NCBI GenBank assembly: GCA_049322915.1
Contig: JBMOPW010000007.1
Location: 244,246 to 308,245, forward strand
Reading direction: 5' to 3'
Source: Candidatus Zhuqueibacterota bacterium
GTDB lineage: Bacteria > Zhuqueibacterota > Zhuqueibacteria > Thermofontimicrobiales > Thermofontimicrobiaceae
Length of the DNA: 64,000 bases
Shown in pieces: positions 40,025-62,516 of the stretch. Numbering within the stretch: the stretch's first letter is position 1; every line of letters begins with the position of its first letter. The translations under genes were made by a program, and so were the position numbers. The notes under the pieces were generated by a model. It did not search any database. It had not been told where the DNA came from and saw only the letters and a program-made list of their open reading frames with translations.

Positions 40025-40453
40025 ATGATAAGACAATATTTAAATAATTCGCGCCGGTTCAGCCATCATCAGGGAGCGATAGCGATCCGGCAAAGCGAGG
40101 CCGGATTTACGCTGGTTGAGGTGCTGGTGACCCTGGTCGTATTCGGGGTGCTGGCCGCGTCTGTCCTGTCGCTGTTCAAAGAGAGCTCCGTGAAACAGCG
40201 GCATGTTATGCACAAAGTGGTGGCCCTGAATTTTGCTCAGGCAGGGATGGAGGGAGTGTTCGCCGATAAATTTTCGCTGGGATTCGATGCGCTGAAAACG
40301 AATCGCTACACGACAGACAGATTCAATGGAGTGATGCGCGTGATTCACATCGATTCGCTGAGTCAGAACATGAAGAAAGTATGCGTCATGGTGGAATGGT
40401 TCGATCAGCGGGACAGCCTTGTGGCGTTAGTCGGGAGATATCAGGGTATATGA
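40025..40453 (+). CDS. Minor pilin (PilV/GspI-like)
   Basis: EAG/FTLVEVLV N-methylation motif; ATG 40025 preferred over the ORF-track start. Confidence 0.8.
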   Translation: MIRQYLNNSRRFSHHQGAIAIRQSEAGFTLVEVLVTLVVFGVLAASVLSLFKESSVKQRHVMHKVVALNFAQAGMEGVFADKFSLGFDALKTNRYTTDRFNGVMRVIHIDSLSQNMKKVCVMVEWFDQRDSLVALVGRYQGI

Positions 40454-41414: not shown

Positions 41415-41429
41415 ACCGGTGGGATTTGA

Positions 41430-44400: not shown

Positions 44401-44738
44401 TGAGCCGGCATAGTCCCAATTCTCTCTGGCTCAATCTGTTCAATGGTCGTTACGAAATGATCGATGTGGAAATTGAAAAAAGCGAACTGGCACCTGGCGA
44501 AGATGCGCCGGTGGATTCCGATGAATCGCCCAAGCAAAAACTGCCCGTATTGAATCTGACATTGAAAGGTCTGACTCTCGATCAGTACCAAATTCAGGAT
44601 TTCATTTCCCGGGTCGAAAAAGATGATAGTTACCAGCCCATTCAATTCAGCAAAATAATAACCCGCGAAATTCCGGCTAGCAAGGTCACGCAGTTTGATG
44701 CAGACGGTCGGGTCAACATTTCTGGACATGGGAGATAA
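41430..44738 (+). CDS. PilM-PilN fusion with N-terminal HPt-like helical bundle and long acidic linker
   Basis: PilM motifs IGLDIS, IIDLGA, LTGGGA, AVAVGLAL; then TM, coiled coil and WSNVL...LWL (PilN); residues ~105-520 D/E/P/A-rich. Confidence 0.85.
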   Translation: MHDLDLKTAEKAASAAEGIRYFILKISELLRRSADEKESLKVNRLIYERIKRIELLGAVQGNPQIENLAVNTSIALQNIFKYSKNLRREFFLEVKYFLAAVHALMPDAGDGAEPELPDESDFCDQPSDGAAEASAMRIDPEGQVHADVNFDDIEILAATGSDENRQNTSAEMARSPEVRLAETDADLPGDSAADGREMAGGPKDSSQSKLASQIQEIPQNASPASTDEPPDGQEKLKNSPQTEIEYGTHLIENRVEPELDSILNEVNSFFTEPGQSDSELHRCHPGSETEKLPDLTDREMTEEEANWYEALFSGEPVPEQTQPGELNRSDVDASVDEILQSELLFSELDEIDAGYGDEESATPEKEQGAVRTTRPADDALSCLDGRIVAAPAEEELVRKEAGPVGIDAASEEKAAKAADWQEELDDLEFQLLTVVQQGVPARSESAEAISGRSPGPDTTDRDGRPNRNAAVVATALADGSDEKNAHEARHEPGEAVVREEASEQVRERNLSGTDADEAPSFAFDEDLRPDNAAIGLDISTAALKIVVLKHENDAVELVHWRIYDLDPDESDDERQKNIKHIWASFLTSYRQLRKLPVIASLINNSVLIRYLTLPNMSDANFMKSATLEIQSELFFPEDQVKIFSYPYRVAEGKKSKHKTGILLAIEHRILDEIMNLIKTANIRVARLCIDSLALTQYCADDSAAARAIIDLGAEKVKLVIVQNNEIRLARNIDSYEKSITTEIAEFMGIDLNEAEAVKRNLCFVASGSAGKKYQLELSTGEDINIQNVVYPLYSKLADEIQLTLQYFNSNNEEKVGSVQLTGGGALLQGIDAYLAYILNLPVTIADIKSSVRVSEQAWASNLLRRVSPRLAVAVGLALSHFRPIDFLTDIDLRKNVKIKKPAIKFGSARWLLPIAACLLLLTASPLTFFKIQTMKYQKKLEMKKAMVGEMTRAVESLKSYEGMKERLDTQIQNIQLLKKQQPRWSNVLKILSRHSPNSLWLNLFNGRYEMIDVEIEKSELAPGEDAPVDSDESPKQKLPVLNLTLKGLTLDQYQIQDFISRVEKDDSYQPIQFSKIITREIPASKVTQFDADGRVNISGHGR

Positions 44739-45289
44739 TGGCGTCTGAATTTTTTAAATTGAATGCAACGAAAGAGCAAAAGATACTTCTGGCGATTTTG
44801 GGCAGTCTTATCATCGGCGTATTGGTGTTTCAGTTCCTGCTATTGCCGCCGTATCAGAATTACCGGCGCGTGCGGGCGGCGAATGCGGAGATGGATGACA
44901 AGCTCAATCATTATTACGGGCAGATCGTGCAAATGAAGCGCCTGCAGCGGCAGTATCAGGAAAGCGCCATATTCCTGGCAGGCACTAAATCTGAAATGTC
45001 AATGGACGGGTCCCAATTGTTGACCATGTTGACGAAAAATTCACCGGTTGAGAAGTTTTCGTACTCGTCAATCGAGATAAAAAATCCGGAAGTCCGCGCG
45101 GATAGTATTGTTCAATATCCCTTCGAGATTGGATTCGAGGATGATTACAGGGGCATTGTGCAGTATTTGCTCTACCAGGAATCGTGTCTGCCCATTTCGT
45201 TTATCAATGAAATTGAAATAAAAAATGACAAGAATGATCCTTCCAAATTAGAGACAAAAATTACCGGCGTTATTTACAAAGTGAATTGA
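44738..45289 (+). CDS. PilO/GspM-like protein
   Basis: N-terminal TM, coiled coil, YPFEIGFEDDY; follows the PilN portion. Confidence 0.75.
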   Translation: MASEFFKLNATKEQKILLAILGSLIIGVLVFQFLLLPPYQNYRRVRAANAEMDDKLNHYYGQIVQMKRLQRQYQESAIFLAGTKSEMSMDGSQLLTMLTKNSPVEKFSYSSIEIKNPEVRADSIVQYPFEIGFEDDYRGIVQYLLYQESCLPISFINEIEIKNDKNDPSKLETKITGVIYKVN

Positions 45290-45292
45290 ATT

Positions 45293-45772
45293 ATGTTGCT
45301 TGTACGTATGATACTGGCAGGTCTTTGCGGGTGCCTCTGCTGCACTCAGTCTGAAAAAGAGCATGATGCGGAATTGGCCCGCTATAGCGCTTTGCTGAAC
45401 TCAGTCAATGACTCGACTCAGGTGATTCAGACTGACTCGGTGAAAGCGAATCCAATTTTGGCCAGCATCCGGGAGGGCAGCCCCGGAATTGGGGAAAATG
45501 AGGCTGTGGGACGTAATCCCTTTTCGCCGGCTCGCGCTGAAGTCCGCGTCGAAAAAGTGCGGGTCGAAGCGCCCAGGCCAGTCAGTGAAATTCGCGGATT
45601 GAAATTGACCGGAATCATTCACGCCGATGGCCGAAAGAAAGCGCTGGTCAATGGACTTTTGTATGAAGAGGGAGATCGGATTGGGGCGCTGGTGATTTCT
45701 TCCATTCGCACCGGCGAGATCACATTGACAGGTAAGACAGATGTGTACACACTTCACTTAAAAGAAAACTAA
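45293..45772 (+). CDS. PilP/GspC-like putative lipoprotein
   Basis: GRNPF, LKLTGII, ALVNG-Y-EGD; Cys-containing signal peptide. Confidence 0.75.
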   Translation: MLLVRMILAGLCGCLCCTQSEKEHDAELARYSALLNSVNDSTQVIQTDSVKANPILASIREGSPGIGENEAVGRNPFSPARAEVRVEKVRVEAPRPVSEIRGLKLTGIIHADGRKKALVNGLLYEEGDRIGALVISSIRTGEITLTGKTDVYTLHLKEN

Positions 45773-45774
45773 TT

Positions 45775-47148
45775 ATGCCGAAATCTGATTGCACAATTTA
45801 CAACATACGACACGTGCGCGTCGCTGCGTTGGCGTTTATTGTCGCGATACTCCTCACGGCTTGCAGCCATCAGGCCACGAACTCTCGCCGAAGCACAGCG
45901 CTGGAGGAGAGCTACAGCCTTACCAGCCAGGCAGTGAATAAGCGCATTGACAAAGAAAATAACATTCAGGCGGACGATCCTTTCGACGATCTGAAAGTGA
46001 CCATGACGTTCAACAATGCGCGGCTGACAGATGTCCTTAGAATTGTCGCCCGTGAATTTAAGGCGAATCTGGCGATCCCCAGCGATGAGAATAGCAAAGT
46101 GACAGTCGCATTGCAGAATGCGAATCTCTACGAAGCGCTAGCAATGATCCTTTCTGCGACCGATTATGCCTATGTTAAAAAAGGACAGGTGTTCGTCATT
46201 AAAAAAAATACAGAGAAAATATCAAGTGTCTATGCATTGAAATTTGTCAAGGCTGGAAGCATTGCAGAGATACTGGCCGGCATTACTGAAACGGCGAAGA
46301 TCAGCGCCGACGAATTGACGAATTCGCTTCTCGTTACCGATGAAATTGTGAACATGGCCACCTTTGATGAGATCATCGATGAGTTGGACAAATTCCAGCC
46401 AGCGGTTTTGATCGAGGCGGATATTTTCGAGATTTCACTGGAGAACCTGAGAACCCTGGGTATCGAATGGGGGATTCATTATTTTCAAGATCCCAACGCG
46501 ATGGGCGCAGCTAGTCCAAAGGCGTTATCCGCGGAGGGGTTGGTCTTCAGCTACAGCAATTTAAAGGCGCCGCAGATCGAGTTGATGCTCAGAGCGTTGC
46601 GAGGCAGCAGCTATTCCGAATTGCTGTCCAAACCGCGAATCGTCACATTGAACGGCGAGGAAGCGAAGATGCTTGTGGGTGAACGCGTGCCGTACGTTAA
46701 AGCCTCGACAGCCACGGCAACCGGGAATGTGTTGCAGGAAGTGGAATTTGTCGATGTAGGCATTCTGCTGAAAGTGACGCCCAGGATCATTGCAGAGGAA
46801 AACATGGTCATCATTGATGTGCAGCCAGAAGTCAGCGAAGTGCTGGATAAAACCATCCAGGGCGTTCCGCGAATTGGCACCCGGGAAGCTAAAACGCGTG
46901 TGGCAGTTAAAAATGGCGAGACAGTTATTATTGGGGGACTGATAAAAAAGGATAAACTGTGGGCAGATTCGGGTACCCCTTTGTTAGAAAAAATACCACT
47001 GATCAACCTGTTTTTTAAAAACAGGACAGATAGTAAATCCGAACGGGAATTGATCGTTTTTATCACCCCGCACATTTTAACAAAGGAGCATTATGACATC
47101 ATGAAAGTTGAGCACAAAAGCGCCAAAAGCACTCATGATAACCGATGA
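45775..47148 (+). CDS. Secretin (PilQ/GspD family) with lipobox
   Basis: LSKPRIVTLNG, VGILLKVTP, NGETVIIGGL, ELIVFITPHI; LLTAC lipobox. Confidence 0.92.
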   Translation: MPKSDCTIYNIRHVRVAALAFIVAILLTACSHQATNSRRSTALEESYSLTSQAVNKRIDKENNIQADDPFDDLKVTMTFNNARLTDVLRIVAREFKANLAIPSDENSKVTVALQNANLYEALAMILSATDYAYVKKGQVFVIKKNTEKISSVYALKFVKAGSIAEILAGITETAKISADELTNSLLVTDEIVNMATFDEIIDELDKFQPAVLIEADIFEISLENLRTLGIEWGIHYFQDPNAMGAASPKALSAEGLVFSYSNLKAPQIELMLRALRGSSYSELLSKPRIVTLNGEEAKMLVGERVPYVKASTATATGNVLQEVEFVDVGILLKVTPRIIAEENMVIIDVQPEVSEVLDKTIQGVPRIGTREAKTRVAVKNGETVIIGGLIKKDKLWADSGTPLLEKIPLINLFFKNRTDSKSERELIVFITPHILTKEHYDIMKVEHKSAKSTHDNR

Positions 47149-47965: not shown

Positions 47966-50900
47966 ATGAACTGGCAACGGACAAAAAGATTATCTTATTT
48001 ATTTTTCCTCGGATTTATCCTTTCTATTCGACCCTCTGTCGCTTTGCTATTCGGCCAGCAAGCTGGAACCAGCAGAATATCCGGTTATATTTTCAATAAA
48101 TTTGGTCAGCCGCTTTCCGGCGTAGAAGTGCGGGCAATCATCTCCAGCGGCTCCTACTACGACCGCATTGTTTACTCATCCGCCGACGGTAGTTTTGACA
48201 TTCAGTCCCTGCCAGTCGGGCAATATTATCTCCGAATTTTCAACAAGCTGGGGTATTTAGATGTCTATTATGAAAATGCCCTCAATAAAGAAGACGCCAC
48301 GCTCATCAAGTTGAATTATGATCAGCATGTTCAGGATGTCAATTTCTACCTTGAAAGCGGCGGATTTATCAGCGGCACGATTTTCGATGAAGCGGGGGCG
48401 CCCATTACGTCGAGCAGTTCAATCGTTTTTTTCGAGGCGGAAAACAACAATCCCCGGGGTGTCATTAACAGTATGAAAGATGGCAGTTATGTCAGCCCTG
48501 CGCTTCCAAGCGGACCTCATATTTTAAAAGCCTCTTCATTCCCGTCAGGTTATATTTTGACATATTATCAAAACGTCAGCACTCAGGATAGCGCGACGGT
48601 CGTCCATGTGACCCAGGGAGATACCGTGAAAAACATCGATTTCTACCTGCGAAAAGGCGGTGCAATTTCCGGTTTCGTGAGAGGCGATACCCCGGAAAAT
48701 GAGCCGGTATTCAATGCCTGGGTTGTGGTGACTGACTGGGATAATGGTGAATGGAGCTCGGAATGCAAGACGGACTCGGACGGATATTACCGCGCCGCTG
48801 GTCTCAGGCCGGGAAATTACCGGGTCCTGGTTTACAGCGTTGATCCATTGCTATATCACACTGAATTTTATCGTGATACGCCGCAGCGGGAAAATGCAAT
48901 ACCGGTCACTGTGATCGGGGAGGAAACGACCAGCGACATCAATTTCAATCTTCAGCCGGTGAGAAGGCTGGTGACCGGGAACGAGTTCATTGAGTTTTGC
49001 GTCAGCGACCGTTACCCTGGAACCAATCTCTCCTTATGGATTACCGGCGGGCTGCCGGAAAGTAACACCGATAACGACAAGCCGCTTCTATTCGGCCATC
49101 CCTACCCGTACACGTCGTTCACGACCGTTCGGATCGATGGCGAGGATATCATTTTTGGATCCGAGAAGGGCGACATGGTCGGCAACGTTTACATCAAACC
49201 GGATGGAAAAAGTATTGAACGTACCTGGAAGTATAAGAAAATCTCCATTGTGCAGAAAATAACGTTGACGGTGAGCGAATGGTCCGAGACGAAATATGAA
49301 GACACCGCCCAGATCCAATACGTCATCACCAATGACGACGGGATAAGTCATCAGGTTGGGTTGCGCATTTTGCTTGATACCATGCTGGGGGATAATGACG
49401 CTGCTCCGATTCGTACTTCGGATTTTACTTATTCGAATTACGAGCGCTCGTTCAATTCGCACAATATGCCTGACTGGTGGGCTGCGATGGAGGGCGACAA
49501 AAGGAAGACGATTTTTTCCGCCCAGGGCACTTTGGTCGGTTACGGAGCGACGGCGCCGAATCAATTCTCAACCGTCAATTGGAGCAATGCGTTCAAAACG
49601 CTGTGGGATTATCGGACCAGCGGCGATGTCGGCGTGATTTACGACAGCGGTGTGGCCATGTGGTGGAACCCGGAACCCATTGCGCCGGGCAACACAAAGA
49701 TCGTCTGTACCTATCTGGGATTGGGAGAGATGTTCCCTGATAATTCACCCCCGTATACCGCGCACCACAGCCCGGCCAGGGACAGCAGCTATGTGGCGCT
49801 TCATTCGAATATTCAGGTGGATATTCTGGACGATTACATGGGCGTGGATTCGACGACAATCGTCATGACCGTGAATGGGCAGGTAGTAAATCCTACCATC
49901 AGCGGCAGCCTGTCTCAGTTCACGGTCAGTTTTGATCCGGAAGAGAATTTTAACTACAATGACACGGTGCGGATTAAAATCGATGCTTCCGATTTGGCTA
50001 TTGAGCCCAATATTATGCCGACCGACGAGTACGTCTTTTACGCAGTCAGGGATACGCTCCCTCCCTACGTGAAAGATGTATATCCGCTTGCCGGACTATC
50101 CCGGGTGAAATCCGATACCAGCCTGTCCCTTACCATTTGTGATGACCATTCCGGCGTGGATTCTGCCTCGATAGAAATCCGAATGGACGGCGAGGTCATT
50201 CGTCCGAACATTACAGGCTCTCCGCAGCAGTATTTCATTCGCCATCCGTTTGAACCTCCTTTTGGCGAAATGGACACGGTCATGGTCTTCATCCGGGCGA
50301 AAGATAGAGTGGCGCCGGCAAATCCGGTCACCATGCAATATCTGTTTGTGACGGAAAGGGATTCCCTGTCGCCGCGGATCACTTTTACCTATCCGTCAAA
50401 TAACCAGGTGCATATCCCACGCGATACCACGATCACAATTCGTTTGGAGGATGATTACACCGGCATTGACCTGCAATCGATTCGCATGATGGTGAACGGA
50501 ACGTTGGTTGAACATGAATTGCGCGTTTCAGATTCGCGACATGTAGAGATTGCTTATAGACCGGACCACGGGTTTCGATTTAACGATCGGATTTCAGTGC
50601 AGATCGAGGCGCGCGATCTGGCGCGGCACCCAAACGCAATGCCGCCGTTCGGATTTAACTTCAGCGTGGTGACTGATGTGGAGCCGCCATTCATTACCAG
50701 CCAGACGCCGGTTCCGAATGATACGACTGTTGTGCCCAGCCCTCAAATCGTGATCGGGATAGCGGATGAAAAAGCCGGGGTGGATTCTCTTTCCATCCGG
50801 CTATGGCTGAATGAAAATTCTGTCCCATTTCAACTGACCGGAAATAAATTTCAGTATCTGGTAAATTACCAGATCCCATCTCCATTGAATTATCTCGAGT

Positions 50901-52549
50901 GGGTGCAGGTGACTTTTGTCGCTGCCGATTTAAGCAGTCCGGCCAACGCAATGGATACGCTCCGCTATCAATTCCGAATCACGCGCGAGAAAGATGTCAC
51001 GTCGCCCTATGTGGTGCAATGGCAGCCAGTTCCTGATGCGGATGATGTTTTACCAGATTGTATTATTTCTTTCCATATCAGGGATGACATGGCCGGAGTG
51101 GATAGTAGTTCGGTTATATTAAAAATTAATAATAAATTGACAACGACGCGGCCAAAAATTACCGGTGGTTTACATGATTATCTGGTTCAATATCAGCCAC
51201 CTGAGCCATTTCAGTATGGACAAAGCATTGTGCTGCATGTCGATGCTCAGGATCTGGCGGTTGATGCACCAAACAAAATGAAAACAGACAGTTGTCATTT
51301 TTCAGTGCTGCCCGATATCGCGCCGCCAAAAGTGGAGTGGATTTCACCGGGCCTGCCTGGCACGCATATTGCATTAAATTCACATTTTACTTTCGAAATT
51401 TTCGATGAGCTGACTGGCGTCGATATTCGGTCCCTTCGATTTACGTTTCAGGATGAAGAAGTAGAGCCTGACCTGTCGGGCGAGCGTGGCCGAATTCGCG
51501 TGGAGTTCACTCCGGAAAGCCCATTGAATTACAATCAGCAGATTAAATGGGTCGTTACGGGGCGCGATCTTGCTTCGCCATCCAACCGGATGACGGATAC
51601 ATTGTTTTATTTCTATTCATTGGAAGATCACGACGCGCCGTATACGATGAACCATCAACCGGCAAAAAATCAACCCGACGTCAGATTTGATAGTGGAATA
51701 CGCGTTGATGTCTGCGATGATATTGCCGGTGTGAATTTAAGCTCGATTCGGATGACTGTAGAGGGGGATACAGTTCCTCCTCTCATTACAGGAACGTCCC
51801 AGTGTTACCAGCTCTTCTTTCAGCCTGAGCCACCTGGCTTCCGGCCGGGTCAGCGCGTGCGGGTAACTCTTGGCTGTTCCGACCTATCCAATCCACCGCT
51901 TAAAATGGACACAGACAGCTATGAGTTTTTCATTAAAGATGTCTATCCTGATTTTTATTTCGATTCCTTCAATTCAGATAATGCAAAAATATTGGTTCAT
52001 CAACCGATAACATTCTCAGGGGTCTTCCGGGTTGCAGTGGCTCCGACATTTGATTCGGTCATTGTTAAAGTCTGGGACAATAATCGGCCCGTTTTATCCG
52101 AGGCTTTTCCTCCGCTCCCGATTGATGCGGAGATGGAGATCGCCGGCAATGTCGCTTTTCAAACCAGTGGCTCGCATCGGTTACGAGTGACAGTGGATCC
52201 GGATAACAAGATAAGAGAGGCGGATGAAAGTAATAACAGCGCTGAAATCGTGATCAATGTAATTGAAGGGGAACTCATCGTCCGGTCCAATCCGTTTACT
52301 CCGAACGGCGACGGCATAAATGACGAGGTGGCATTCAATTTCGAAAAAATCGCGGTGACGAAACCATCGCTGACATTGTTCGATGTTTCCGGCCGATCGA
52401 TAACGGCGCTGACAGAATACCACAGCTATAAATTTACCTGGGACGGCAGAGATCGGTACGGCAACCAGACGCAACCTGGTGTTTACTTATACCTGCTCAA
52501 AGACGGCGAAAAAGTCGTGGCTAACGGCTACGTCGTGATTGCACGCTAA
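47966..52549 (+). CDS. Large surface protein: carboxypeptidase-regulatory-like repeats, 7 Ig-like repeats, CARDB, type-B T9SS (gliding-motility) C-terminal domain
   Basis: Signal peptide; seven D-x-x-x-P...P repeat heads of ~105 aa; DPDNKIREADESNN; C-terminal NPFTPNGDGIND...GVYLY...VVIAR. Confidence 0.82.
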   Translation: MNWQRTKRLSYLFFLGFILSIRPSVALLFGQQAGTSRISGYIFNKFGQPLSGVEVRAIISSGSYYDRIVYSSADGSFDIQSLPVGQYYLRIFNKLGYLDVYYENALNKEDATLIKLNYDQHVQDVNFYLESGGFISGTIFDEAGAPITSSSSIVFFEAENNNPRGVINSMKDGSYVSPALPSGPHILKASSFPSGYILTYYQNVSTQDSATVVHVTQGDTVKNIDFYLRKGGAISGFVRGDTPENEPVFNAWVVVTDWDNGEWSSECKTDSDGYYRAAGLRPGNYRVLVYSVDPLLYHTEFYRDTPQRENAIPVTVIGEETTSDINFNLQPVRRLVTGNEFIEFCVSDRYPGTNLSLWITGGLPESNTDNDKPLLFGHPYPYTSFTTVRIDGEDIIFGSEKGDMVGNVYIKPDGKSIERTWKYKKISIVQKITLTVSEWSETKYEDTAQIQYVITNDDGISHQVGLRILLDTMLGDNDAAPIRTSDFTYSNYERSFNSHNMPDWWAAMEGDKRKTIFSAQGTLVGYGATAPNQFSTVNWSNAFKTLWDYRTSGDVGVIYDSGVAMWWNPEPIAPGNTKIVCTYLGLGEMFPDNSPPYTAHHSPARDSSYVALHSNIQVDILDDYMGVDSTTIVMTVNGQVVNPTISGSLSQFTVSFDPEENFNYNDTVRIKIDASDLAIEPNIMPTDEYVFYAVRDTLPPYVKDVYPLAGLSRVKSDTSLSLTICDDHSGVDSASIEIRMDGEVIRPNITGSPQQYFIRHPFEPPFGEMDTVMVFIRAKDRVAPANPVTMQYLFVTERDSLSPRITFTYPSNNQVHIPRDTTITIRLEDDYTGIDLQSIRMMVNGTLVEHELRVSDSRHVEIAYRPDHGFRFNDRISVQIEARDLARHPNAMPPFGFNFSVVTDVEPPFITSQTPVPNDTTVVPSPQIVIGIADEKAGVDSLSIRLWLNENSVPFQLTGNKFQYLVNYQIPSPLNYLEWVQVTFVAADLSSPANAMDTLRYQFRITREKDVTSPYVVQWQPVPDADDVLPDCIISFHIRDDMAGVDSSSVILKINNKLTTTRPKITGGLHDYLVQYQPPEPFQYGQSIVLHVDAQDLAVDAPNKMKTDSCHFSVLPDIAPPKVEWISPGLPGTHIALNSHFTFEIFDELTGVDIRSLRFTFQDEEVEPDLSGERGRIRVEFTPESPLNYNQQIKWVVTGRDLASPSNRMTDTLFYFYSLEDHDAPYTMNHQPAKNQPDVRFDSGIRVDVCDDIAGVNLSSIRMTVEGDTVPPLITGTSQCYQLFFQPEPPGFRPGQRVRVTLGCSDLSNPPLKMDTDSYEFFIKDVYPDFYFDSFNSDNAKILVHQPITFSGVFRVAVAPTFDSVIVKVWDNNRPVLSEAFPPLPIDAEMEIAGNVAFQTSGSHRLRVTVDPDNKIREADESNNSAEIVINVIEGELIVRSNPFTPNGDGINDEVAFNFEKIAVTKPSLTLFDVSGRSITALTEYHSYKFTWDGRDRYGNQTQPGVYLYLLKDGEKVVANGYVVIAR

Positions 52550-52560
52550 ATGGAAAAATT

Positions 52561-54333
52561 ATGATCGCCTGGAAAAAAATACTGATCGGGATTGTCATTA
52601 TTTCCGGAATTCTGGACGGCGGGAATCCTCGTTCCTGCGTCTCGCAGAATATTCTCACAGCCGACCCTGCCGATATCTTTGATTCAAAAGCGATTTTTTT
52701 GAACTCGGCTGTGATTCCTTTTCAGAGACGCCATGTTGCGCTGGGAATGCAAGTGTATCAGATGGGTTTTATGAAAAGCAATGAATTGGGTTTGAATACC
52801 GGCTATTTCAGTCTTTCCCTGGCTGAGTCGCTTCCGTTGTATCTGAATTTCGGATTGTCCGGACAAAATTTTTCAACGCCGTTGTACGATCAGACAAATT
52901 TTTCATTACATTTCGCCGCCAGGCCAATGGAGCGGATATCCGTAGGGATTAAGTACAATGTGTTCACCAAATCGTATCACCAGAGGTATTTCGACCTGGT
53001 GGATATCAACGATCCTGTCTTTGCGAATGGCACGACCAAGTTTGCCCAGAGTATCGGCGCCGGGGTGCTGTTTTTCCCGCTGTCTGAGCTTGCGCTGGGT
53101 CTGGCAGTTGATCATATCAATCGGCCGGATGTTTCTCTTTCCGATGACGTGTTCCGGCAACCTCTGGCGTACGACATGGGGATTCGGTATTCGTACAGAC
53201 ACTTTAGTAGTTCCATTCATCTGAATTATATGCAGGAACACTGGCAGTTCAATTGGATGCTGGAAACGCGGCCGACGTCCATAAGCTCATTCAGGCTGGG
53301 CTTGATTCAGAAGGCTGCGGATTTTCAGGTCGAGTTGAGCGTGCTGGATGGTTTTTCAATCAACTATGTTTTTAATTACCCGCTTTACGAGGTAAGCCAG
53401 ATTAGCAGTGGCAGTCATCAGATTAACTTCATTTATGAGTTGGGACGGAGAACTCCGCTGGATGAGTTTCAATACACCAGGTATGATGAAGGCAAATCAC
53501 CCATTTTCGACCTGCCGTCTCAATTCTTTGTTGAACTGAATGATGCGACCCTTGAAGTTCAGTCACAAAAAATTCTTCGCCGGATTGAAAATGATGTGCC
53601 CGGTAATGCGCTTGCAAATCTGACTGAAATGGAATTGGCTCTCAATGATTCCATCAGCCATCCGCAGGATTTTTTTCAGCACGGACAGGTGGAAGAGCCG
53701 TTGGATCGTTTGAGCGGGAAGCCAAAATATTCGACTAAGTATGATAATTATTTAGCAGAATTGGCCGATATTTTTTCCGGAGATGGGGATGAGTCCATCA
53801 AAATCCTGACCGAAACTGCATCTCGAACACGAGCGGAAGATTTGCTTCGGGACAAAATCTACAATGCGACCAAATTGGCGGCCACAGAAAAGGTTGTCCA
53901 GTTAAATGAAACCGAAGCCACCCGCAAAGTGAAACCGGGCGATGTACCAAAAAGCAGCTATGCCTCGGCGATTGAACTCAATCCGGAAAAGGCTGTCTTT
54001 TCTGTCACATCGCTCAAAATGAGGGCGTATCGGCGAGAATGGCGGCTTGTCATACTGGACGGAGATGAAAAGGAAGTCAAAAACTTTTCCGGAAAAAACG
54101 ATGTTCCGGAAACAATTGAGTGGGATTGGAGGAACCAAAACGGCAGGTTGCTTCAGCCGGGCGTCTATGTGTACCGCCTCGAATGGTTCGATAACGAGGG
54201 CAAGTTGCGACAATCGCGAGCGGCGTCGTTCAGCGTTGAAAAGCGCTCGCGCACATTTTACATTGATGTGTGCGCATCGCCCAGGAAAATCGAGCCCGAA
54301 GGAACCCACGTTGAAATTAAACTGACGCAATAG
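52561..54333 (+). CDS. PorP/SprF-family outer-membrane beta-barrel with C-terminal FlgD-Ig-like domain
   Basis: GLAVDHINRPDVS and SGSHQINFIY (PorP-like); EWDWRNQNG-PGVYVY; adjacent to the type-B CTD protein. Confidence 0.72.
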   Translation: MIAWKKILIGIVIISGILDGGNPRSCVSQNILTADPADIFDSKAIFLNSAVIPFQRRHVALGMQVYQMGFMKSNELGLNTGYFSLSLAESLPLYLNFGLSGQNFSTPLYDQTNFSLHFAARPMERISVGIKYNVFTKSYHQRYFDLVDINDPVFANGTTKFAQSIGAGVLFFPLSELALGLAVDHINRPDVSLSDDVFRQPLAYDMGIRYSYRHFSSSIHLNYMQEHWQFNWMLETRPTSISSFRLGLIQKAADFQVELSVLDGFSINYVFNYPLYEVSQISSGSHQINFIYELGRRTPLDEFQYTRYDEGKSPIFDLPSQFFVELNDATLEVQSQKILRRIENDVPGNALANLTEMELALNDSISHPQDFFQHGQVEEPLDRLSGKPKYSTKYDNYLAELADIFSGDGDESIKILTETASRTRAEDLLRDKIYNATKLAATEKVVQLNETEATRKVKPGDVPKSSYASAIELNPEKAVFSVTSLKMRAYRREWRLVILDGDEKEVKNFSGKNDVPETIEWDWRNQNGRLLQPGVYVYRLEWFDNEGKLRQSRAASFSVEKRSRTFYIDVCASPRKIEPEGTHVEIKLTQ

Positions 54334-54455
54334 CGTTGCTCGTCTGGTTGATGAAACTCATTCAAAAACCATTAGGTAACAGAAAATAGTCCTCGACACA
54401 AGAGGCGATTTCGATGAGAGGGAAGTTCATGATGTAGCGAACGTGCGCTGAAGGT

Positions 54456-54470
54456 CGGAACACGTTTTGC
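54456..54470 (+). promoter_or_regulatory. Candidate sigma54 (-24/-12) promoter
   Basis: CGGAACACGTTTTGC (GG-N10-GC), about 75 bp upstream of the exbB-like gene. Confidence 0.4.
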
Positions 54471-54545
54471 CCGTCCGAAACGGAGACGGACAATACACTA
54501 CACGGGTAACAGGAGTTTTAATGCGATAGTTGAAGGAGCATTCCG

Positions 54546-56123
54546 ATGTTTTTAAAGAAGAAAACAATTTTGTTGATGCTGATTTTTTTGTTATTGCCGG
54601 GCGCGGAATTCATCTGGGCCGTTCCGCAGACGGCGCAGCCAGATTCAATAATGAACAGTAATGCCAATACTGCGTTAGATCCAGCAACTCTGACGCAGAT
54701 CAATGGCCTGCAATCCCTCTGGGATATAACGCTCCTGGCTGGATTCTTTCGTTGGTTTATCAACGGGACATTTATTATTGGTATGCTTCTCATTATGTAT
54801 AAAGTCTCGGAGTTGGTCCTGGATTCCAGGCATTCCCGTGATCTGGAGAAATTGAATTTGCGCCGGGCATCGCTGGTAGATGTGATGCGTGTTATTAAGA
54901 ATAACAAGCAAAGTATGTTGAGTCAATTGTTCAAATATATGATGGACCTGTATCAGACCAGACGATCGGCTGAGGGATTCAATAGTGAGATCAGCGATTT
55001 TGTCCAGATCCAGCAGGAGCGATTTCAGGCAGTGCAAACAAAAGTGGCTTTTTTCTCGGAGGCAGCCGGGGCGCTGGGATTGTTAGGTACGGTATGGGGG
55101 ATGTTCATCACCTTCTTTGGCGGGGATCTGGAAAAGCAGAAAATCCTGAGCGGAATGGGTGTGGCCCTGGTTACCACCATTATGGGATTGATTGTGAGCC
55201 TTATTCTCAATTTATTCATGATGCAAACCTTTAGCTATTTCAGAAGACGGATCGATAAAGTTTCGGATCTGGGAAATCAATTCCGGCTGAGATTGCATCA
55301 GTTGGAACAGACCCTGGACAATTCCATTCCTGATAATGGCGAAGATTCCGATAATGGTGATTCAATCAACAAGTCCAATTATGAAATTTCAAAAGCTGTA
55401 ATTGATGCAGTGGATCGACAGCTTAAAAGACCGGATCCAATTTTCGATTTTGTGAGCGATGCGGGCGCGAAGACGGCTGCCGAAAATGGCGGATTTAAAA
55501 TCGTTCCGATTTCAGGTGATAATCAGTCGGTGCGCGTGAATTCACGTCTGGAAAAACCGTTTGTTGTACAAATTTCATCCAACAACGGGAATGGATTATC
55601 GGACCAACCAATCCTTTTTGAAGTCGTGGAAGGTAATGGTAAATTTAGCTCTGGCCGAAAGCAGGAGGAGGTCCTCAGCGATGCCAGTGGATTGGCCCAG
55701 TCGCATCTCATCCTGGGCAGCTTGTCTGGTGAAAATAAAGTGAAAGTGAAAGTGAAAGGCAGTTCCAATTCGGACTTTTATTTCAAGGCATGGGGAGAAC
55801 CAACGGAGCCGGATCAATTGGTCTATGTGTCCGGCAATCATCAAAACGGACCGTGCGGCGCTGAGTTGAAAGAACCTTTTGCGGTGAAAGTCATTGACAA
55901 ATTCAATAATCCGATTCCGGATTGGATCGTATCGTTCAAGGTCGAGGACGGCAAGGGATTTTTCCCTGAGAAAAAGAGCGAGTTTCAGACCCGCACCGAT
56001 CAGAATGGGCTTGCAGAAGTCTACTTTACATTGGGTAAAAAGCCCGGGTTCAATTCGGTGAAGGCATCATTGAAAGGACTGAAGAAATCCAAAATTTATT
56101 TTGAAGCTCTTGGACAGGGATGA
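54546..56123 (+). CDS. MotA/TolQ/ExbB proton-channel protein fused to two C-terminal Ig-like (Big_1-like) repeats
   Basis: LGLLGTVWGM and GMGVALVTT-GL; repeats ISGDNQ...EKPFVV and VSGNHQ...KEPFAV. Confidence 0.85.
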   Translation: MFLKKKTILLMLIFLLLPGAEFIWAVPQTAQPDSIMNSNANTALDPATLTQINGLQSLWDITLLAGFFRWFINGTFIIGMLLIMYKVSELVLDSRHSRDLEKLNLRRASLVDVMRVIKNNKQSMLSQLFKYMMDLYQTRRSAEGFNSEISDFVQIQQERFQAVQTKVAFFSEAAGALGLLGTVWGMFITFFGGDLEKQKILSGMGVALVTTIMGLIVSLILNLFMMQTFSYFRRRIDKVSDLGNQFRLRLHQLEQTLDNSIPDNGEDSDNGDSINKSNYEISKAVIDAVDRQLKRPDPIFDFVSDAGAKTAAENGGFKIVPISGDNQSVRVNSRLEKPFVVQISSNNGNGLSDQPILFEVVEGNGKFSSGRKQEEVLSDASGLAQSHLILGSLSGENKVKVKVKGSSNSDFYFKAWGEPTEPDQLVYVSGNHQNGPCGAELKEPFAVKVIDKFNNPIPDWIVSFKVEDGKGFFPEKKSEFQTRTDQNGLAEVYFTLGKKPGFNSVKASLKGLKKSKIYFEALGQG

Positions 56124-56146
56124 GAGCGCGGGAGAAATACTAATTT

Positions 56147-56560
56147 ATGATGAACCAGGGTGGAGTAATACTTCGACTCATCGATGTCACGCTTCTTTTG
56201 TTGTTCAGTTTTATTTCGGTCAGTGAAATAAGTGAGAGAAGTTTCATTAAACTACCGAAAAGCACTCAGACGTTGCCAACCCTTCCCGATAAAGAGGATC
56301 TATTGGTTGTTGGGATAACGCCGCAGGGGACATTTCTTGTCGAGGACGAAACCCGGGTGCTCAATAATTTTCAGGCTTTGGAAGAGTATATTATCAATAA
56401 GAACAATAAAAATTTACGCGAAAATATTGCAACCCGTGTTCGCATTCGCGCTAACTGGAACACTCACATGAAATACGTGGTCGCGCTGGTCAATTTGTGC
56501 GATAGTCTGAAAATACCCAAAGGTCTGGATGTCGTTCTCAAGGAAGGCAATACATTATAA
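56147..56560 (+). CDS. ExbD/TolR-family protein 1
   Basis: RLIDVTLLLLFSF (conserved TM Asp) and IKLP. Confidence 0.85.
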   Translation: MMNQGGVILRLIDVTLLLLFSFISVSEISERSFIKLPKSTQTLPTLPDKEDLLVVGITPQGTFLVEDETRVLNNFQALEEYIINKNNKNLRENIATRVRIRANWNTHMKYVVALVNLCDSLKIPKGLDVVLKEGNTL

Positions 56561-56576
56561 TGTGTGAGTTATTATC

Positions 56577-56987
56577 ATGGTAAAAGGTGGTTTAATCATT
56601 CGCCTTATTGATGTGGTGTTAATTGTCTTATTCAGTTTTTTGAACATCACTGATATTGACCGTAAAGGTCAAATTAAATTACCGTCGATTGGACCGAGCA
56701 AAAGTCAGAAAGTAGCACAGCAACTTCTGTTTCTCACCATTGAAAACGGGAATACGTTTGTATTAACGGACGGCCAGCAAGCCATTGCCCAATTGGACAG
56801 TCTCCCAAAGCTGGAGCGAATGATAGCAAATCTGAATGACCAGTATAAACTGGAACAACGGCGGATGGTTCTGGTGATTGAGCCAGCTATGGAATCAATC
56901 ATACAGTCCACGATCGACGTCATGGATATCTGTGAGAAATACAATATCCCAAAAAGTGTATCCTATTCAAAAATTGAACTCAATTAG
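56577..56987 (+). CDS. ExbD/TolR-family protein 2
   Basis: RLIDVVLIVLFSF, IKLPS, IDVMD. Confidence 0.85.
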   Translation: MVKGGLIIRLIDVVLIVLFSFLNITDIDRKGQIKLPSIGPSKSQKVAQQLLFLTIENGNTFVLTDGQQAIAQLDSLPKLERMIANLNDQYKLEQRRMVLVIEPAMESIIQSTIDVMDICEKYNIPKSVSYSKIELN

Positions 56988-56999
56988 GTCAGGACGCTC

Positions 57000-58208
57000 A
57001 TGGATTGGATTCTGGAAAAAAGTAGTGAGTTTAATTTCAGAGCAAAGCTCTTGAATTATCGTCGAGTGAGCGAATTGCTCGTTATTATATTCTTGATTGG
57101 AATGTACGTCTATCTGGAACATGCCGCTGTCCCTAATTTTGGGTATCAATTTGCCAGAGCTTATAAAGAGATCGATTGGGTCAAGTTTTCAGAGGATGTG
57201 ATGCCACCGGTGCAGCGACAGATCATCCCAATCCCGACAACTCCCGGCGAAACGACTCTCATGACACCTGAGCTTTCAACTACTCTGACCAAATCGGAGT
57301 GGTCGGAGATATCGGATTTATTAAAAAATGATATCAGTAGTGTTTTGAATTCAAAGGAATCAGCTTCGTTGGTGCAACCGCCTGATGAGAAGTTTGAGTA
57401 TTCTCAACTGAAAAATCTGTATGCGGATCCGTCGATGAAAGAAGGACAAACGAGGGTTCAGGACAATCAGGCAGAATTGCATAAAATCAGTTCTCCGATT
57501 TCACTGCTTTCATCAGTAAAGACGAACGCGAGTCAGGCGAATGAATTACCAATCGACGATTATGATATTGCCATTCCGGTTGATCGGGATCGCTACAGTG
57601 AATCGGATAGACCCCAAATTCTTACAACGACCACCACAGCAGCGACGATTGGAATTCCCTCGACTGGCGCTCCGGGTGTGACAATTGGGAAGTCAGCATT
57701 CGCGTCTAATAGACGTTCGACGATTGGAACGGACAAAGTGATACCTGAGACAGGTCCGGGGGGCGGCCAGGTCAGCAGCAAATACACCACATACGTCAAG
57801 CAAAATATGGCCATCATTATCGACGATCTGATGAAGTGGATGAACAGCAACAAGGGATCATTTAACCGGGTGACTGAAAGTTTTATGATGTATGAAAGCG
57901 GTGACCTCACATCGAAAACTGATTATGTTTATAATGGCCGTAAATTTGAGTTATACTTGCTGTACAAGCCCAATGTGAAAGAGATTCGAATTTGTATGGT
58001 GGAGGGAAATCGTTCTACCATGCTCATAGATGATGGGTTCAAAAAGCAAAGCAATTATCTCAGAACTGGCGATGTCTCACGTGATGGAAATGATTCCATT
58101 GTTTTGTTCAGCACCAGTCAGCATCCGGCCTCCGAACAGATGACAAATGAATTTTATCAGATCTTTCTAATGTGGTGGGAAAAAGCAAAGAAATCCATTG
58201 GCTTGTAA
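57000..58208 (+). CDS. Single-TM protein with long S/T/P-rich linker and C-terminal globular domain (TonB/TolA-like architecture)
   Basis: TM LLVIIFLIGMYVYL, low-complexity middle region, position after the two exbD genes; no recognisable TonB_C motif. Confidence 0.55.
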   Translation: MDWILEKSSEFNFRAKLLNYRRVSELLVIIFLIGMYVYLEHAAVPNFGYQFARAYKEIDWVKFSEDVMPPVQRQIIPIPTTPGETTLMTPELSTTLTKSEWSEISDLLKNDISSVLNSKESASLVQPPDEKFEYSQLKNLYADPSMKEGQTRVQDNQAELHKISSPISLLSSVKTNASQANELPIDDYDIAIPVDRDRYSESDRPQILTTTTTAATIGIPSTGAPGVTIGKSAFASNRRSTIGTDKVIPETGPGGGQVSSKYTTYVKQNMAIIIDDLMKWMNSNKGSFNRVTESFMMYESGDLTSKTDYVYNGRKFELYLLYKPNVKEIRICMVEGNRSTMLIDDGFKKQSNYLRTGDVSRDGNDSIVLFSTSQHPASEQMTNEFYQIFLMWWEKAKKSIGL

Positions 58209-58285
58209 TTGCGTCGGCAATAATTTGGCTTCAGTATGATGTTCCATTTCGTATCGAACGATTCATACAGGATTGCACGAAAATT

Positions 58286-58963
58286 ATGAAATTAAAATTT
58301 CTCATATTTCTATTATGTTTCTGGGCGATGTATGCGTCAGGGCAGAGCGTCGATAATGGCCAGGGCAAAGTGTCCCAAATTTCTGTGCCGGTTATGAGCA
58401 TCACAGATACTAAATTGATGACCATGTTGATGGATGAATTTTTCATCCCGGAAACATTGGTGACCCGGATGGAGATAATCGATGTGGGGCTCAACGGATT
58501 TGGCGCGCGAGATCTGGTTAAAGTCTACCCTTCAGCCGAAATTTATTTCATCGAATTCATCTCCAATAAAGCCCAGCAAGTAATGAACGACTGGAAGTTT
58601 CGAGCTAATTTTCAAATAGTCACCCAAAATGCGGACGCCAGCGTTTTGTCCAACTACGGCGAAAACAAACCGGCATACAATATTTTCATCTCGTTGCTGA
58701 GGAGCATGGAGCGAAATTACAGTGATTATCCCATCAAAATTAAATTGGAGCGGGATTCTTCCACTGTTAAATTCGAGATGTGGGAATATAACGAAACAAA
58801 GCTGAAGTTCGATCCCCGGTCTACACCCCTGGAGAATGATATTTTGACCAGGCAAGCCAAATCCATTGTCGATAGTACCTACTATGACTGCATTTTTATA
58901 TACAAAACAGTTGTCGATACTGTATACCTACCACAACGCAGATTAGAAACCGTTGCCAAGTGA
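58286..58963 (+). CDS. Exported hypothetical protein
   Basis: MKLKFLIFLLCFWAMYASG signal peptide at ATG 58286. Confidence 0.7.
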   Translation: MKLKFLIFLLCFWAMYASGQSVDNGQGKVSQISVPVMSITDTKLMTMLMDEFFIPETLVTRMEIIDVGLNGFGARDLVKVYPSAEIYFIEFISNKAQQVMNDWKFRANFQIVTQNADASVLSNYGENKPAYNIFISLLRSMERNYSDYPIKIKLERDSSTVKFEMWEYNETKLKFDPRSTPLENDILTRQAKSIVDSTYYDCIFIYKTVVDTVYLPQRRLETVAK

Positions 58964-59529: not shown

Positions 59530-60171
59530 ATGGTAGTCATTGAATCCCAATACGCGCTATTCCAGGAAATCGATCATCTCAATACGAACTTCATTCCCGG
59601 AATACATAAAATGAGGCTGACGATTGATACCATATCGTCGGAGGATAATTACAGACGGGCTTATCCAGCCATTGTGAAACAGTTTGTCCACCTTTTCCCT
59701 AGACTGAAGCAACATTCCTGCTGCTATTCGAAAATCGGCCAGAGTGATCTGATTCATGGCGATTTGATTCCCATGATCAACGAAGGAAATTGTATCTTGG
59801 ATATCATCCATATTGTGGAACATGTCATTATTGATTTGCAGTGCTCGTTATCCGGAATGAAAATATGCAGTGGTATTACATGCAATTATAAAGAGCCGAG
59901 AACTCGCTACGATATTTTTGTAGAATGTATCGATCAAAAAGTGGGATTGAGCGCTGCGCTTACGGCAGTGGAAATGGTCCAAAAAATTCTGGCGTGCGAT
60001 TATTTGAAATACCCATTTGACGAATTCATTTCGGTCAATGACCTTCTGCGAGATCAGAGCCCGGAGCAGATTCAACTGAATTCCATCGTGGAAAGCTGTG
60101 AGCCATATATCTTTGATTTTGGTAAAGATTTAATCAGACGAGTGTTAAATTTCTCCATGTCTAAAAATTGA
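59530..60171 (+). CDS. Stand-alone cyanophycin synthetase N-terminal-domain-like protein (HxxEH)
   Basis: FPRLKQHSC...HIVEHVIIDLQ...SG-T...RYDIFVE...VG-AA-AV pattern follows the CphA N-domain. Confidence 0.6.
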   Translation: MVVIESQYALFQEIDHLNTNFIPGIHKMRLTIDTISSEDNYRRAYPAIVKQFVHLFPRLKQHSCCYSKIGQSDLIHGDLIPMINEGNCILDIIHIVEHVIIDLQCSLSGMKICSGITCNYKEPRTRYDIFVECIDQKVGLSAALTAVEMVQKILACDYLKYPFDEFISVNDLLRDQSPEQIQLNSIVESCEPYIFDFGKDLIRRVLNFSMSKN

Positions 60172-60291: not shown

Positions 60292-60353
60292 GGAAATATC
60301 TAAATTTGTAAAGAGTAAAAACCAGATCAGTTGCGATATTGAGAGAAGACTGT

Positions 60354-62420
60354 ATGAGTAATCCATTAGTTTTGGTGGCCGATGGAGACCCCAAAAACCT
60401 CCAGATTCTGAAAGAGAATCTTGAAGCGTCTGGATTCATTGTCATCACTGTTTCCACCGGAAATCGAGCCTGGGAAGAAATACAGCGCACTCCGCCTAAG
60501 CTTATCCTGAGTGAGTTGAATCTTCCTGGCATGACCGGCTATCAATTACTCGAACGGTTACAGGCCGATCCCAATACTGCATCCATTCCTTTGATTTTTT
60601 TAACCAACCAGCGTGAAATTCAGCAGCGAGTCCGCAGTTTCGAATTGGGCGCCAAGGACTATCTCGTAAAACCCCTCCATGTGAAAGAAGTGATCGCTCA
60701 CATCCGAATGGTGTTGCGCCGACTGGAACGCCGCAAGGTAGAACAATTAGAGACATACATGAAATTTTCCGGTCGTCTCGATCAGTTGAATCTCGCCGAT
60801 CTGATTGAGAGTTTCGGCGTGGAGCGAAAGACTGGTGTTTTGACGTTGAGTAATGGACGCCGGACAGGCCAGGTGTATTTCCGCGAAGGAACGGTTGTAA
60901 ACGCCAGCCTCGGTGATGTGAAACTGGAACAAGCTGTCTACCAAATGTTTTCCTGGAAACATGGATTTTTTAACATGGTTTTTCGCGATGTCGATGTGCC
61001 GGACGGCATCTCAATCAGCAACCTGGGCCTGCTGCTTCAAGGCATGAAGCGGATGGAAACCCGCGAAAATTTGATTGCTCAACTCTCTTCGCCGAAAACA
61101 GCTTTTATCATCACTCCGACATTTAAGAACATTGTCGAACGCAAGAAAGTCGGCGATGCAGTCTCCTCATTCATCCAATTGCTGGATGGTAAACGGGATG
61201 TGGAACAAATAATCGACGATAGCGGTGCAGATGACCTGGTGACGCTCAAGAGAATTATACGACTGTATCAACAGGGATTCATCAAAGCGACGATCCCGCC
61301 GGCGAAAAAAGAGGTGACGCAGCAGCAGCCCGTTATTGAGCCGAAGAAAATTGAGCCTCGAAAACCTGTCGAGACCGCTGAGGAGATACTGCGTCGAATG
61401 GAAAAACCTGTAGCGCCTGATGAGGCCACCCCGGCCATTCCGGACGACAACGTGTTTGAAGTCGCTCCTCGCAAAGAGCGTAAAAATTTAGAGGACGAGA
61501 TCAAGCCGATTGTGGAGCGAATTCAGGCGGAGCGCCGGGAAGTCTACATTCCAGAGACTGAAGAAGAATCAGAAGAACAGTTGATTCAGCAGGATGAGCC
61601 ACCGACAACCGGATACGCTCGGTTTGCAGAGGAAGACGTGCAGGACTCATTCCCTGTTTCCCATACAGAAGATGTTCATGCACCTGTAGCCGAAGTCGAA
61701 GAAGAAATTCTGGCCAAGGCTGAAAAGCAGGAAACGTTTGTCGATGAAGAATTGCTGCAACAGCCGATCGAGGAGAATATTGAGGCAGAGCCTGTTGTTA
61801 ATCTTCCAAAGAAAGAAAAAATCCCGGTTGCCATGTCAGATACCAGCCGAACGGTGGCTTCCCGAGCACCTACTGACAGGAATAATATCATGCTCATCAG
61901 CGTCGATGAGGATTGCAAAGATGAGTTGATGGATGTTCTCACCGGGAATAAATTCCAGTCGAAGTCCATCAAAGAGCTGGAAGATTTACGGCTGGAAATT
62001 GGCAAGATTAATTTTGAAAAATTCCCGGCCTATAATCTGATCGCTATTTCTTTGGATAAACAATTTAATATATTCCTGGAGTCGGTTAAAAACAGCATCA
62101 TTGGCAATGTTTTCACATTCGATTGCTCCCGTCAGGAAACCTGGGAATACACAAATTATCTGATCCATTCGATCTGGCATAAATTTAAAATTCCCTATGT
62201 GATTGCAGTCATCAATCTGCATGAGCACAATTCTATTTCCATGGACGTAATTCGGTATCAATTGAATCTCGATATGGATGTGGCGCTCATCGCATGGGAC
62301 CCTGTGGATAAATCCTCGATTCGGAAAGTGATGTCCACAGTGATAAAAGGCGACCTGCGAAAGGAACAAAATAAAACAGCAGTCATGTTGGATTCTTTGG
62401 TAGAAAAAATGATGATGTAA
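60354..62420 (+). CDS. Atypical receiver + DUF4388 (PATAN) + acidic linker + degenerate small-GTPase-like domain
   Basis: LILSELNLP (D to E), GAKDYLVKP, FSGRL-LADLIE-KTGVL, C-terminal IIGNVFTFD/IPYVIAV. Confidence 0.8.
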   Translation: MSNPLVLVADGDPKNLQILKENLEASGFIVITVSTGNRAWEEIQRTPPKLILSELNLPGMTGYQLLERLQADPNTASIPLIFLTNQREIQQRVRSFELGAKDYLVKPLHVKEVIAHIRMVLRRLERRKVEQLETYMKFSGRLDQLNLADLIESFGVERKTGVLTLSNGRRTGQVYFREGTVVNASLGDVKLEQAVYQMFSWKHGFFNMVFRDVDVPDGISISNLGLLLQGMKRMETRENLIAQLSSPKTAFIITPTFKNIVERKKVGDAVSSFIQLLDGKRDVEQIIDDSGADDLVTLKRIIRLYQQGFIKATIPPAKKEVTQQQPVIEPKKIEPRKPVETAEEILRRMEKPVAPDEATPAIPDDNVFEVAPRKERKNLEDEIKPIVERIQAERREVYIPETEEESEEQLIQQDEPPTTGYARFAEEDVQDSFPVSHTEDVHAPVAEVEEEILAKAEKQETFVDEELLQQPIEENIEAEPVVNLPKKEKIPVAMSDTSRTVASRAPTDRNNIMLISVDEDCKDELMDVLTGNKFQSKSIKELEDLRLEIGKINFEKFPAYNLIAISLDKQFNIFLESVKNSIIGNVFTFDCSRQETWEYTNYLIHSIWHKFKIPYVIAVINLHEHNSISMDVIRYQLNLDMDVALIAWDPVDKSSIRKVMSTVIKGDLRKEQNKTAVMLDSLVEKMMM

Positions 62421-62516
62421 TTGCAGCACCTGCTGGCATTGTCTCAGCAGTTAGAAACAGAGAGAGCGCCTTGCGATGCAATTTTCGAATCGCAAGGTTT
62501 TTTACTCAATCAGGTG

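Follow-up and report, generated by a model that had tools for sequence, protein, structure and literature searches.

What might an ExbB/ExbD-type motor do when its genes lie directly behind those of a type IX secretion system (T9SS) cargo protein and its outer membrane carrier? The question is raised by a gene cluster in a 64,000-nucleotide stretch of DNA (hereafter, the window, with positions counted from its first letter) from a Candidatus Zhuqueibacterota bacterium (GenBank assembly GCA_049322915.1, contig JBMOPW010000007.1, positions 244,246 to 308,245 of the forward strand). An earlier note on this DNA had proposed that an Agl- or Exb-type proton motor energizes a T9SS-like adhesin system there in place of GldLM. 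We find a conserved envelope machine built from parts of known families and not previously described in the literature that we searched, a search beyond which most subscription papers and supplements lie. Our reading, to which we give a probability of roughly 0.58 on the basis of the predicted proteins and their relatives, is that the force of the motor is brought to bear on a surface appendage once it has been exported, the appendage here being an adhesin with an immunoglobulin (Ig)-like stalk on a PorP carrier that has no wall anchor.

The cluster consists of seven co-directional open reading frames (ORFs), all on the + strand and all where the earlier note had placed them, save for the probable start of the last. 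It opens with a type-B T9SS cargo of 1,527 amino acids (aa) at 47966..52549, in which a signal peptide, CarboxypepD-like Ig domains, about seven Big_5-type repeats of about 105 aa, and a CARDB domain precede a type-B C-terminal signal; this protein is likely a stalked adhesin. Next comes a PorP/SprF-like carrier of 590 aa (52561..54333), which joins a barrel of the PorV/FadL fold (about residues 29 to 295) to a predicted periplasmic tail. The motor genes encode an ExbB/TolQ-type subunit of 525 aa (54546..56123; MotA_ExbB match, signal peptide, three transmembrane [TM] helices, and two C-terminal Big_1 Ig domains) and two ExbD/TolR-type subunits (56147..56560 and 56577..56987; both Pfam family ExbD), whose TM helices both retain the aspartate that the note had reported, within RLIDV. 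They are followed by a TonB-like connector of 402 aa (57000..58208), with a TM anchor (residues 23 to 41), a disordered linker of about 220 residues, and a folded end domain, and by an exported protein of 225 aa (58286..58963) with a conserved DxxxxGFGxxD motif. The ORF of this last protein was listed as 58172-58963, but alignment with homologues makes the ATG at 58286 the likelier start. The intergenic gaps, in gene order, are 11, 212, 23, 16, 12, and 77 bases.

The supposed pairing of type-B cargo and PorP/SprF-like carrier, 11 bases apart, is borne out by scores above the cut-offs of CHU_C for the cargo (40.4 bits; cut-off, 27) and of PorP_SprF (PF11751) for the carrier (30.7 bits; cut-off, 22.3). 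The TIGR04131 model, which the earlier note had named for a scan, scores 25.2 bits against a cut-off of 35, which is exceeded in the cargo of the host's paralogous cassette and in a Balneolaceae cargo (35.6), and TIGR03519 gives the carrier 29 bits, far below 90.55. Because the matching NCBIfam models stay below their cut-offs, we regard cargo and carrier as divergent members of their families. A Pfam scan of the exported protein found no family match, and the end domain of the connector matches no Pfam or NCBIfam family. The window copy also lacks the TPR gene that is usual elsewhere; three tandem TPR-family genes at contig C20:238908-243349, with no motor nearby, may serve it.

The named homologues of the connector belong to candidate division KSB1, in which the connector domain has 117 matches in 64 of 167 genomes, with up to three paralogues per genome. 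We fetched 60 of these 117 loci, the first 40 of which were chosen for long contigs and family spread and picked by the connector alone. Among the 40, PorP and the exported protein occur at 38 loci each, ExbB, ExbD, and type-B cargo at 36 each, and a TPR gene at 35, so that the synteny anticipated in the earlier note extends, for each gene other than the TPR gene, to 36 to 38 of the 40 loci. Given this synteny gene by gene and a second copy on contig C32 of the host genome, the grouping is not due to chance, and a conserved cassette of type-B cargo, PorP-like barrel, ExbB, two ExbDs, connector, usually a TPR lipoprotein, and exported protein is confirmed. Neither tolB nor pal is among the six conserved families of the 40 loci (ExbD, TPR, connector, PorP, ExbB, and exported protein). 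All 64 KSB1 genomes with a connector have a PorP-like match, and 9 further genomes have weaker ones. Cargo types vary freely (Big_5 stalks, FG-GAP propellers, VWA, cohesin/dockerin, and ASH-type Ig arrays), and the exported protein is found with the motor core in almost every arrangement. Complete or nearly complete cassettes are present also in Calditrichota, in Balneolaceae (Balneolales), in Rhodothermaceae (Rhodothermales), and in two genomes of the Gemmatimonadota sample (where the count is 3 of 151). Because a cultured carrier of the cassette exists (Balneolales strain ANBcel3, whose cells are motile curved rods according to PMC11700989), the claims made here are testable.

The host genome (6.25 Mb, 96% complete) contains SprA at 712.8 bits (cut-off, 200) and 19 PorV family matches, 16 of them above cut-off; gldL, gldM, and gldN gave no match there, the GldM search lacking a positive control, and the best gldK score, 128 bits, lies below the cut-off of 350. 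This was the genome search that the earlier note had called for. A loose C-terminal-signal pattern fits 185 host ORFs, a few of them spurious. With profiles from related loci, only two type-B cargoes (121 and 116 bits; the next, 53) and only two PorP-like proteins (644 and 630; the next, 51) are found in this genome, and all four fall inside its two cassettes, the second of which, on C32, has a VWA type-B cargo, a type-A cargo, and a TPR lipoprotein. Besides those of the cassettes, there are seven ExbBs. An ordinary exbB-exbD-exbD-tonB operon lies elsewhere, as do two loci resembling the Agl-Glt core (L199:10496-19586 on C4 and L200:1-9907 on C32), with large TPR genes, a small exported protein, exbB, two exbDs, and a GltG-like AgmX/PglI protein. 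At C4:92550-101576, sprA is followed on the same strand by a peptidase-like gene and then by an ordinary exbB-exbD-tonB set, which would be a candidate translocon energizer in GldLM-less genomes if the linkage proves conserved.

Across KSB1, SprA is present in 163 of the 167 genomes, GldL_N in 1, which is not the host (control, 50 of 201 Bacteroidota genomes), and GldN in none (control, both of 2 GldL-positive Bacteroidota genomes). The connector has no match in 103 KSB1 genomes and is found in 2 of the 201 Bacteroidota genomes, neither of them GldL positive. Most KSB1 genomes are therefore without either motor, and since nearly all of the 103 connector-less genomes possess SprA, secretion cannot in general depend on the cassette for its power; as a general account of secretion, the replacement of GldLM by an Exb-type motor is not supported. 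The sole GldL_N match lies on a 2.3-kb contig (L075, G089:C585) from a family without the cassette; its 128-aa GldL-like protein is part of the only gldK-gldL-gldM-like run in the 167 genomes and may represent a rare transfer or bin contamination. No paper on T9SS in KSB1 was found in the literature searched.

Residues expected of a working motor are kept throughout the cassettes: threonines T182, T210, and T211 of ExbB are invariant in 37 of 37 aligned ExbBs, and the TM aspartate of ExbD is found by pattern in 56 of 57 sequences, the remaining one having Asp in a variant context. From these residues and the family domains, we infer that ExbB and the two ExbDs form a proton-conducting motor. 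In a quick tree of 121 rows, which is without Myxococcus xanthus AglR and from which a motif filter removed one of the seven other host ExbBs (on C32), 51 cassette ExbBs form a single long-branched clade (SH-aLRT, 99), separate from six other host ExbBs and from Escherichia coli ExbB and TolQ; the ExbB of one host GltG-like locus (C4:36924) also lies outside it. The label "cassette" stems from our own clustering, and the clade hence shows coherence rather than independent proof. Of the outcomes named beforehand as damaging to the proposal in the earlier note, then, neither a loss of synteny nor canonical gldLM together with a grouping among ordinary Ton systems was observed. Two Ig-like domains follow the last TM helix of ExbB and would be cytoplasmic if the usual ExbB topology holds; 44 of 63 cassette ExbBs exceed 400 aa, consistent with this Ig tail in the alignment, and the tail is missing in one whole subfamily.

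In the model of the connector, one TM helix and a disordered linker precede an end domain that is predicted with confidence (predicted local distance difference test score of about 90) and made of three helices, a six-stranded meander, and a helix. Its best fold match (Z score of 7.4 and root mean square deviation [rmsd] of 4.5 over 120 aligned residues) is in the range of chance arrangements, and the model has no Foldseek match at an E value of 0.001. The end domains of TonB and TolA are absent from the best 50 VIA fold rows, although the domain may yet resemble them, and neither PF03544 nor TIGR01352 (TonB C-terminal domain) matches the connector by sequence. In Atlas searches with either the connector domain or the exported protein, all leads stayed below 0.9, and a complex prediction of PorP, exported protein, and connector end domain (median score of 0.03, no controls) is no evidence either way.

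A natural experiment among the cassettes bears on the role of the anchor. In 10 of 77 cases, the connector directly follows porP, with no exbB or exbD between them, and in all 10 of these motor-less cassettes, the N terminus of the connector is homologous to the ordinary TonB of the genome that the window comes from, as it is in none of the 65 with a motor of their own (2 were left unassigned). Seven of the 10 loci had been fetched for close porP-connector spacing, so that the loss of the motor, not the anchor, had selected them. Three swapped anchors were read, and all keep the TM histidine of TonB, which most connector anchors lack; the swap has at least two origins in the tree, a single clade being rejected (p-AU, 1.5e-44). 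These swaps suggest that the connector needs an ExbBD motor to sit on and, having lost its own, turns to the housekeeping one. TonB and TolA are known to make use of each other's motors, according to the accessible part of PMC12204202.

At the other end of the proposed linkage, the model of the carrier's barrel matches PorV (6h3i_F; Z score of 26.3, rmsd of 2.6, 260 residues aligned), and the tail is predicted to be a degenerate OmpA-like domain within an Ig domain like a T9SS C-terminal domain, the Ig domain model resembling the C-terminal domain of PorU (Z score of 13.2, rmsd of 2.3, 98 residues aligned). A sister family of KSB1 PorP-OmpA fusions adds two OmpA-type domains to the barrel, and the GHTD-like and NRRVE motifs of the last one are intact; the profiles of motor-type carriers and fusions align over 552 columns with 100% probability, stopping before that last OmpA domain. 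A GHTD-like or NRRV motif is kept in 0 of 35 motor-type carriers, and the SprF-type Cys-X-Cys motif is likewise found in 0 of 35. Four of the five fusions examined (L168, L170, L171, L174, and L175) adjoin type-B cargo, and none has a motor gene within 14 to 16 kb. The motor, in other words, accompanies the carrier without an intact wall anchor. In Flavobacterium johnsoniae, type-B cargo encoded in a PorE operon stays static, and cargo that moves is without PorE, as the accessible text of PMC12618676 has it; by analogy, the PorP-OmpA fusions look like the PorP-PorE wall anchor made as a single protein. Another fusion, at L169:5409-7865, joins a PorP barrel to a caspase-like domain and neighbors genes for small type-B cargo, a TPR protein, and sigma-factor-like proteins.

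How the parts may work together can be outlined from these comparisons. The cargo would be exported by Sec and the SprA translocon and would stay on the PorP-like barrel, as SprB/SprF pairs of Bacteroidota suggest. Powered by ExbB and ExbD, whose proton-conducting activity is predicted from the key Thr and Asp residues, the connector would dock on the motor through its TM anchor, a step for which the anchor swaps are strong comparative support, and span the periplasm, where its end domain may act on the periplasmic tail of the carrier by way of the TPR lipoprotein and exported protein. Without the intact wall-binding OmpA domain of the motor-less sister family, the carrier would be free to move, and the adhesin would be pulled or repositioned instead of being fixed in place.

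Several observations weigh against this force-bearing role. The degenerate OmpA-like domain retains an RA motif and might still touch the wall, and one motor-type PorP from Rhodothermia (L216) holds an NRRV string, which is a string match only. We identified no protein that would form a track, and a pull of the TonB kind yields short strokes rather than travel. The window copy is missing its TPR gene. The swapped anchors all fall within one KSB1 family and hence amount to a few events, not ten. The core, moreover, occurs without PorP, so that PorP need not be the direct target of the motor: three Gemmatimonadota genomes with a motor gene have no PorP-like gene, two of them having SprA, and of 16 Rhodothermia loci fetched, 2 are full cassettes and 14 have no PorP or type-B cargo within 20 kb, the rest of these genomes lying outside the search.

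Rhodothermia, the class of the Balneolaceae genome, has the connector in 28 of 151 genomes (47 matches). At at least nine of its loci, small exported proteins and partners of 260 and 750 aa are encoded between the exported protein and exbB; DUF4402, which we take to be fimbria-like, is confirmed at four loci. At least two other loci adjoin large surface-type proteins, one of them a PKD/Ig protein of 3128 aa. Over loci L202-L215, in one Rhodothermia lineage, the motor core goes with DUF4402 clusters or very large PKD/Ig proteins, often in several copies per genome; a word search of the literature gave no match for the anchor swap with the DUF4402 variant. In PorP-less Gemmatimonadota, the exported protein is extended to about 700 aa where seen. 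The loci of these two groups point to a stable core of motor, connector, TPR protein, and exported protein with varying surface structures, of which PorP and type-B cargo are the commonest output, not the sole one. The tie between motor and PorP/cargo drawn in the earlier note stands as the commonest pairing and breaks down in Longimicrobiales-type and many Rhodothermia loci.

Could the motor instead be a private energizer of secretion that ejects the loaded PorP-cargo complex from SprA once (or assembles a structure), leaving the adhesin static afterwards? We think this unlikely. Ejection of carrier-substrate complexes is the step of type IX transport that needs energy, according to the accessible part of PMC12635249, the cassette-bearing genomes tested have no gldL or gldN, and very large cargoes could need extra force; however, sister PorP-OmpA carriers and type-B cargo do without an adjacent motor, even in connector-less genomes such as G092, the 103 KSB1 genomes without a cassette contrast with the 163 with SprA, and the core is also present without nearby PorP or type-B cargo. 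The OmpA-like domain of the carrier and the TPR lipoprotein recall Pal and CpoB, which would suit a Tol-Pal-like positioning device, in which the motor makes and breaks a tether between carrier and wall, gathering adhesins at the pole or septum or stabilizing the outer membrane; PorE has been proposed as a compact tether of this kind that may use a TolA/TonB-like protein (PMC12204202, accessible part). Such a role is quite improbable for the cassette, given that canonical wall-binding motifs are missing from motor-type carriers, that the conserved set includes no TolB-like gene, and that its patchy spread, with up to three paralogues per genome, is unfit for housekeeping.

We attach only a small chance to a surface sensor, in which the load on the adhesin, relayed inward, would gate the motor and ExbB would send a signal to the cytoplasm through its Ig tail. 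It would make sense of the 44 long ExbBs and of two receiver-DUF4388 genes found behind this cassette and behind those of three relatives belonging to the same family, but a whole ExbB subfamily is without the tail, the linkage of the regulators is confined to that family, and no such tail is encoded in motor-less cassettes whose connector has borrowed a TonB anchor. Chance proximity of an ordinary Ton uptake motor to the adhesin pair, to which family membership of ExbB and ExbD might point, is extremely improbable in view of a connector without the TonB C-terminal domain, the separate ExbB clade, a gene order conserved across phyla, and the ordinary exbBD-tonB loci elsewhere in the host genome.

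The preferred reading, force on an exported appendage, leaves the cassette with partial likenesses to several known systems. It shares with SprB-SprF and the GldLM-driven GldJKN track of F. johnsoniae the placing of the type-B cargo gene immediately ahead of that for a PorP/SprF-like carrier, the presence of SprA and PorV, and a proton motor proposed to act on the periplasmic tail of the carrier, but its motor is of the ExbB/ExbD type in a genome with no match to gldL, gldM, or gldN and with gldK below cut-off, its carrier has a periplasmic tail of 300 residues, and it lacks the Cys-X-Cys motif, SprF being disulfide linked to GldK (PMC12635249, accessible part). The static PorE anchors (PG1035-PorP-PorE of Porphyromonas gingivalis and the PorE operons of F. 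johnsoniae) likewise have a cargo-carrier pair, a nearby TPR lipoprotein, and an OmpA-like domain; the cassette differs in having no PorE, in a degenerate OmpA-like domain fused to the carrier, and in its added motor, and it is the motor-less PorP-OmpA fusions of KSB1 that appear to correspond to these static anchors.

The Agl-Glt gliding machinery of M. xanthus, with its ancestral core complex, offers an analogous subunit layout, with one TolQ-like and two TolR-like subunits, a TonB-like transducer, TPR proteins, and, in some copies of the cassette, VWA-type cargo. The Agl link drawn in the earlier note is an analogy: the connector has no FHA, TonB_C, or AgmX/PglI domain, the outer membrane partner is a T9SS carrier, and the Glt models find no match in five connectors or in that of the window, while the same models detect the two separate GltG-like loci of the host. 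With the Ton system, the cassette has in common the motor family, the three-part transducer layout, and the exchangeable TM anchor; it differs in the end domain of the connector, in the lack of a receptor in the cassette, and in a distinct ExbB clade, many members of which bear an Ig tail. The vWA force transducers (Williams-Jones et al. [quoted passage not shown] Judged by its predicted proteins, the cassette lacks features required for membership in the Ton, Tol-Pal, Agl-Glt, and Gld systems.

If the cassette does pull on appendages, it would give these bacteria a new way to pull their own adhesins and the Exb/Tol motor family a new output, through a transducer domain without a clear fold match. 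It might even represent, beside Gld and Agl-Glt and independently of both, a third type of machine for surface motility or retraction by means of adhesins, whose Exb-type core moves interchangeable appendages, either T9SS type-B adhesins on a PorP carrier released from the wall or fimbria-like DUF4402 structures; we put this forward tentatively and consider it doubtful, and true gliding, a sub-case of force on the appendage, is similarly doubtful. Were such a third machine real, the phyla that have it would be ones whose type IX system is GldLM-less, which would also speak for a translocon and carriers older than the Gld motor. A type IX system that spans a whole phylum in the absence of GldLM, with SprA, PorV, type-B carriers, and about 180 cargo proteins, bears in any case on the proposal that T9SS arose within the gliding machinery of Bacteroidota (PMC12635249, accessible part) and raises the question of what powers export in KSB1 genomes with neither motor.

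Other features of the window stand apart from the cassette. The two receiver-DUF4388 proteins, followed by a similar-looking small protein, are encoded at window positions 60339-63728 and contig C7:308025-308522, and the tail of the first, read by eye, resembles a degenerate small GTPase. A promoter and terminator scan was uninformative (35 and 16 sites versus 25 and 13 expected by chance), and a search for RNA runs found none listed. The type IV pilus/type II secretion system cluster upstream (35732-47148) was dropped as a candidate part of the cassette because it shows no linkage in relatives; its PilM-like protein carries an extra acidic N-terminal part of 530 residues. Four tandem hybrid histidine kinases follow a FIST-like sensor gene directly behind ribosomal protein operons (21890-34660), and a stand-alone cyanophycin synthetase N-terminal domain protein of 213 aa is encoded at 59530-60171.

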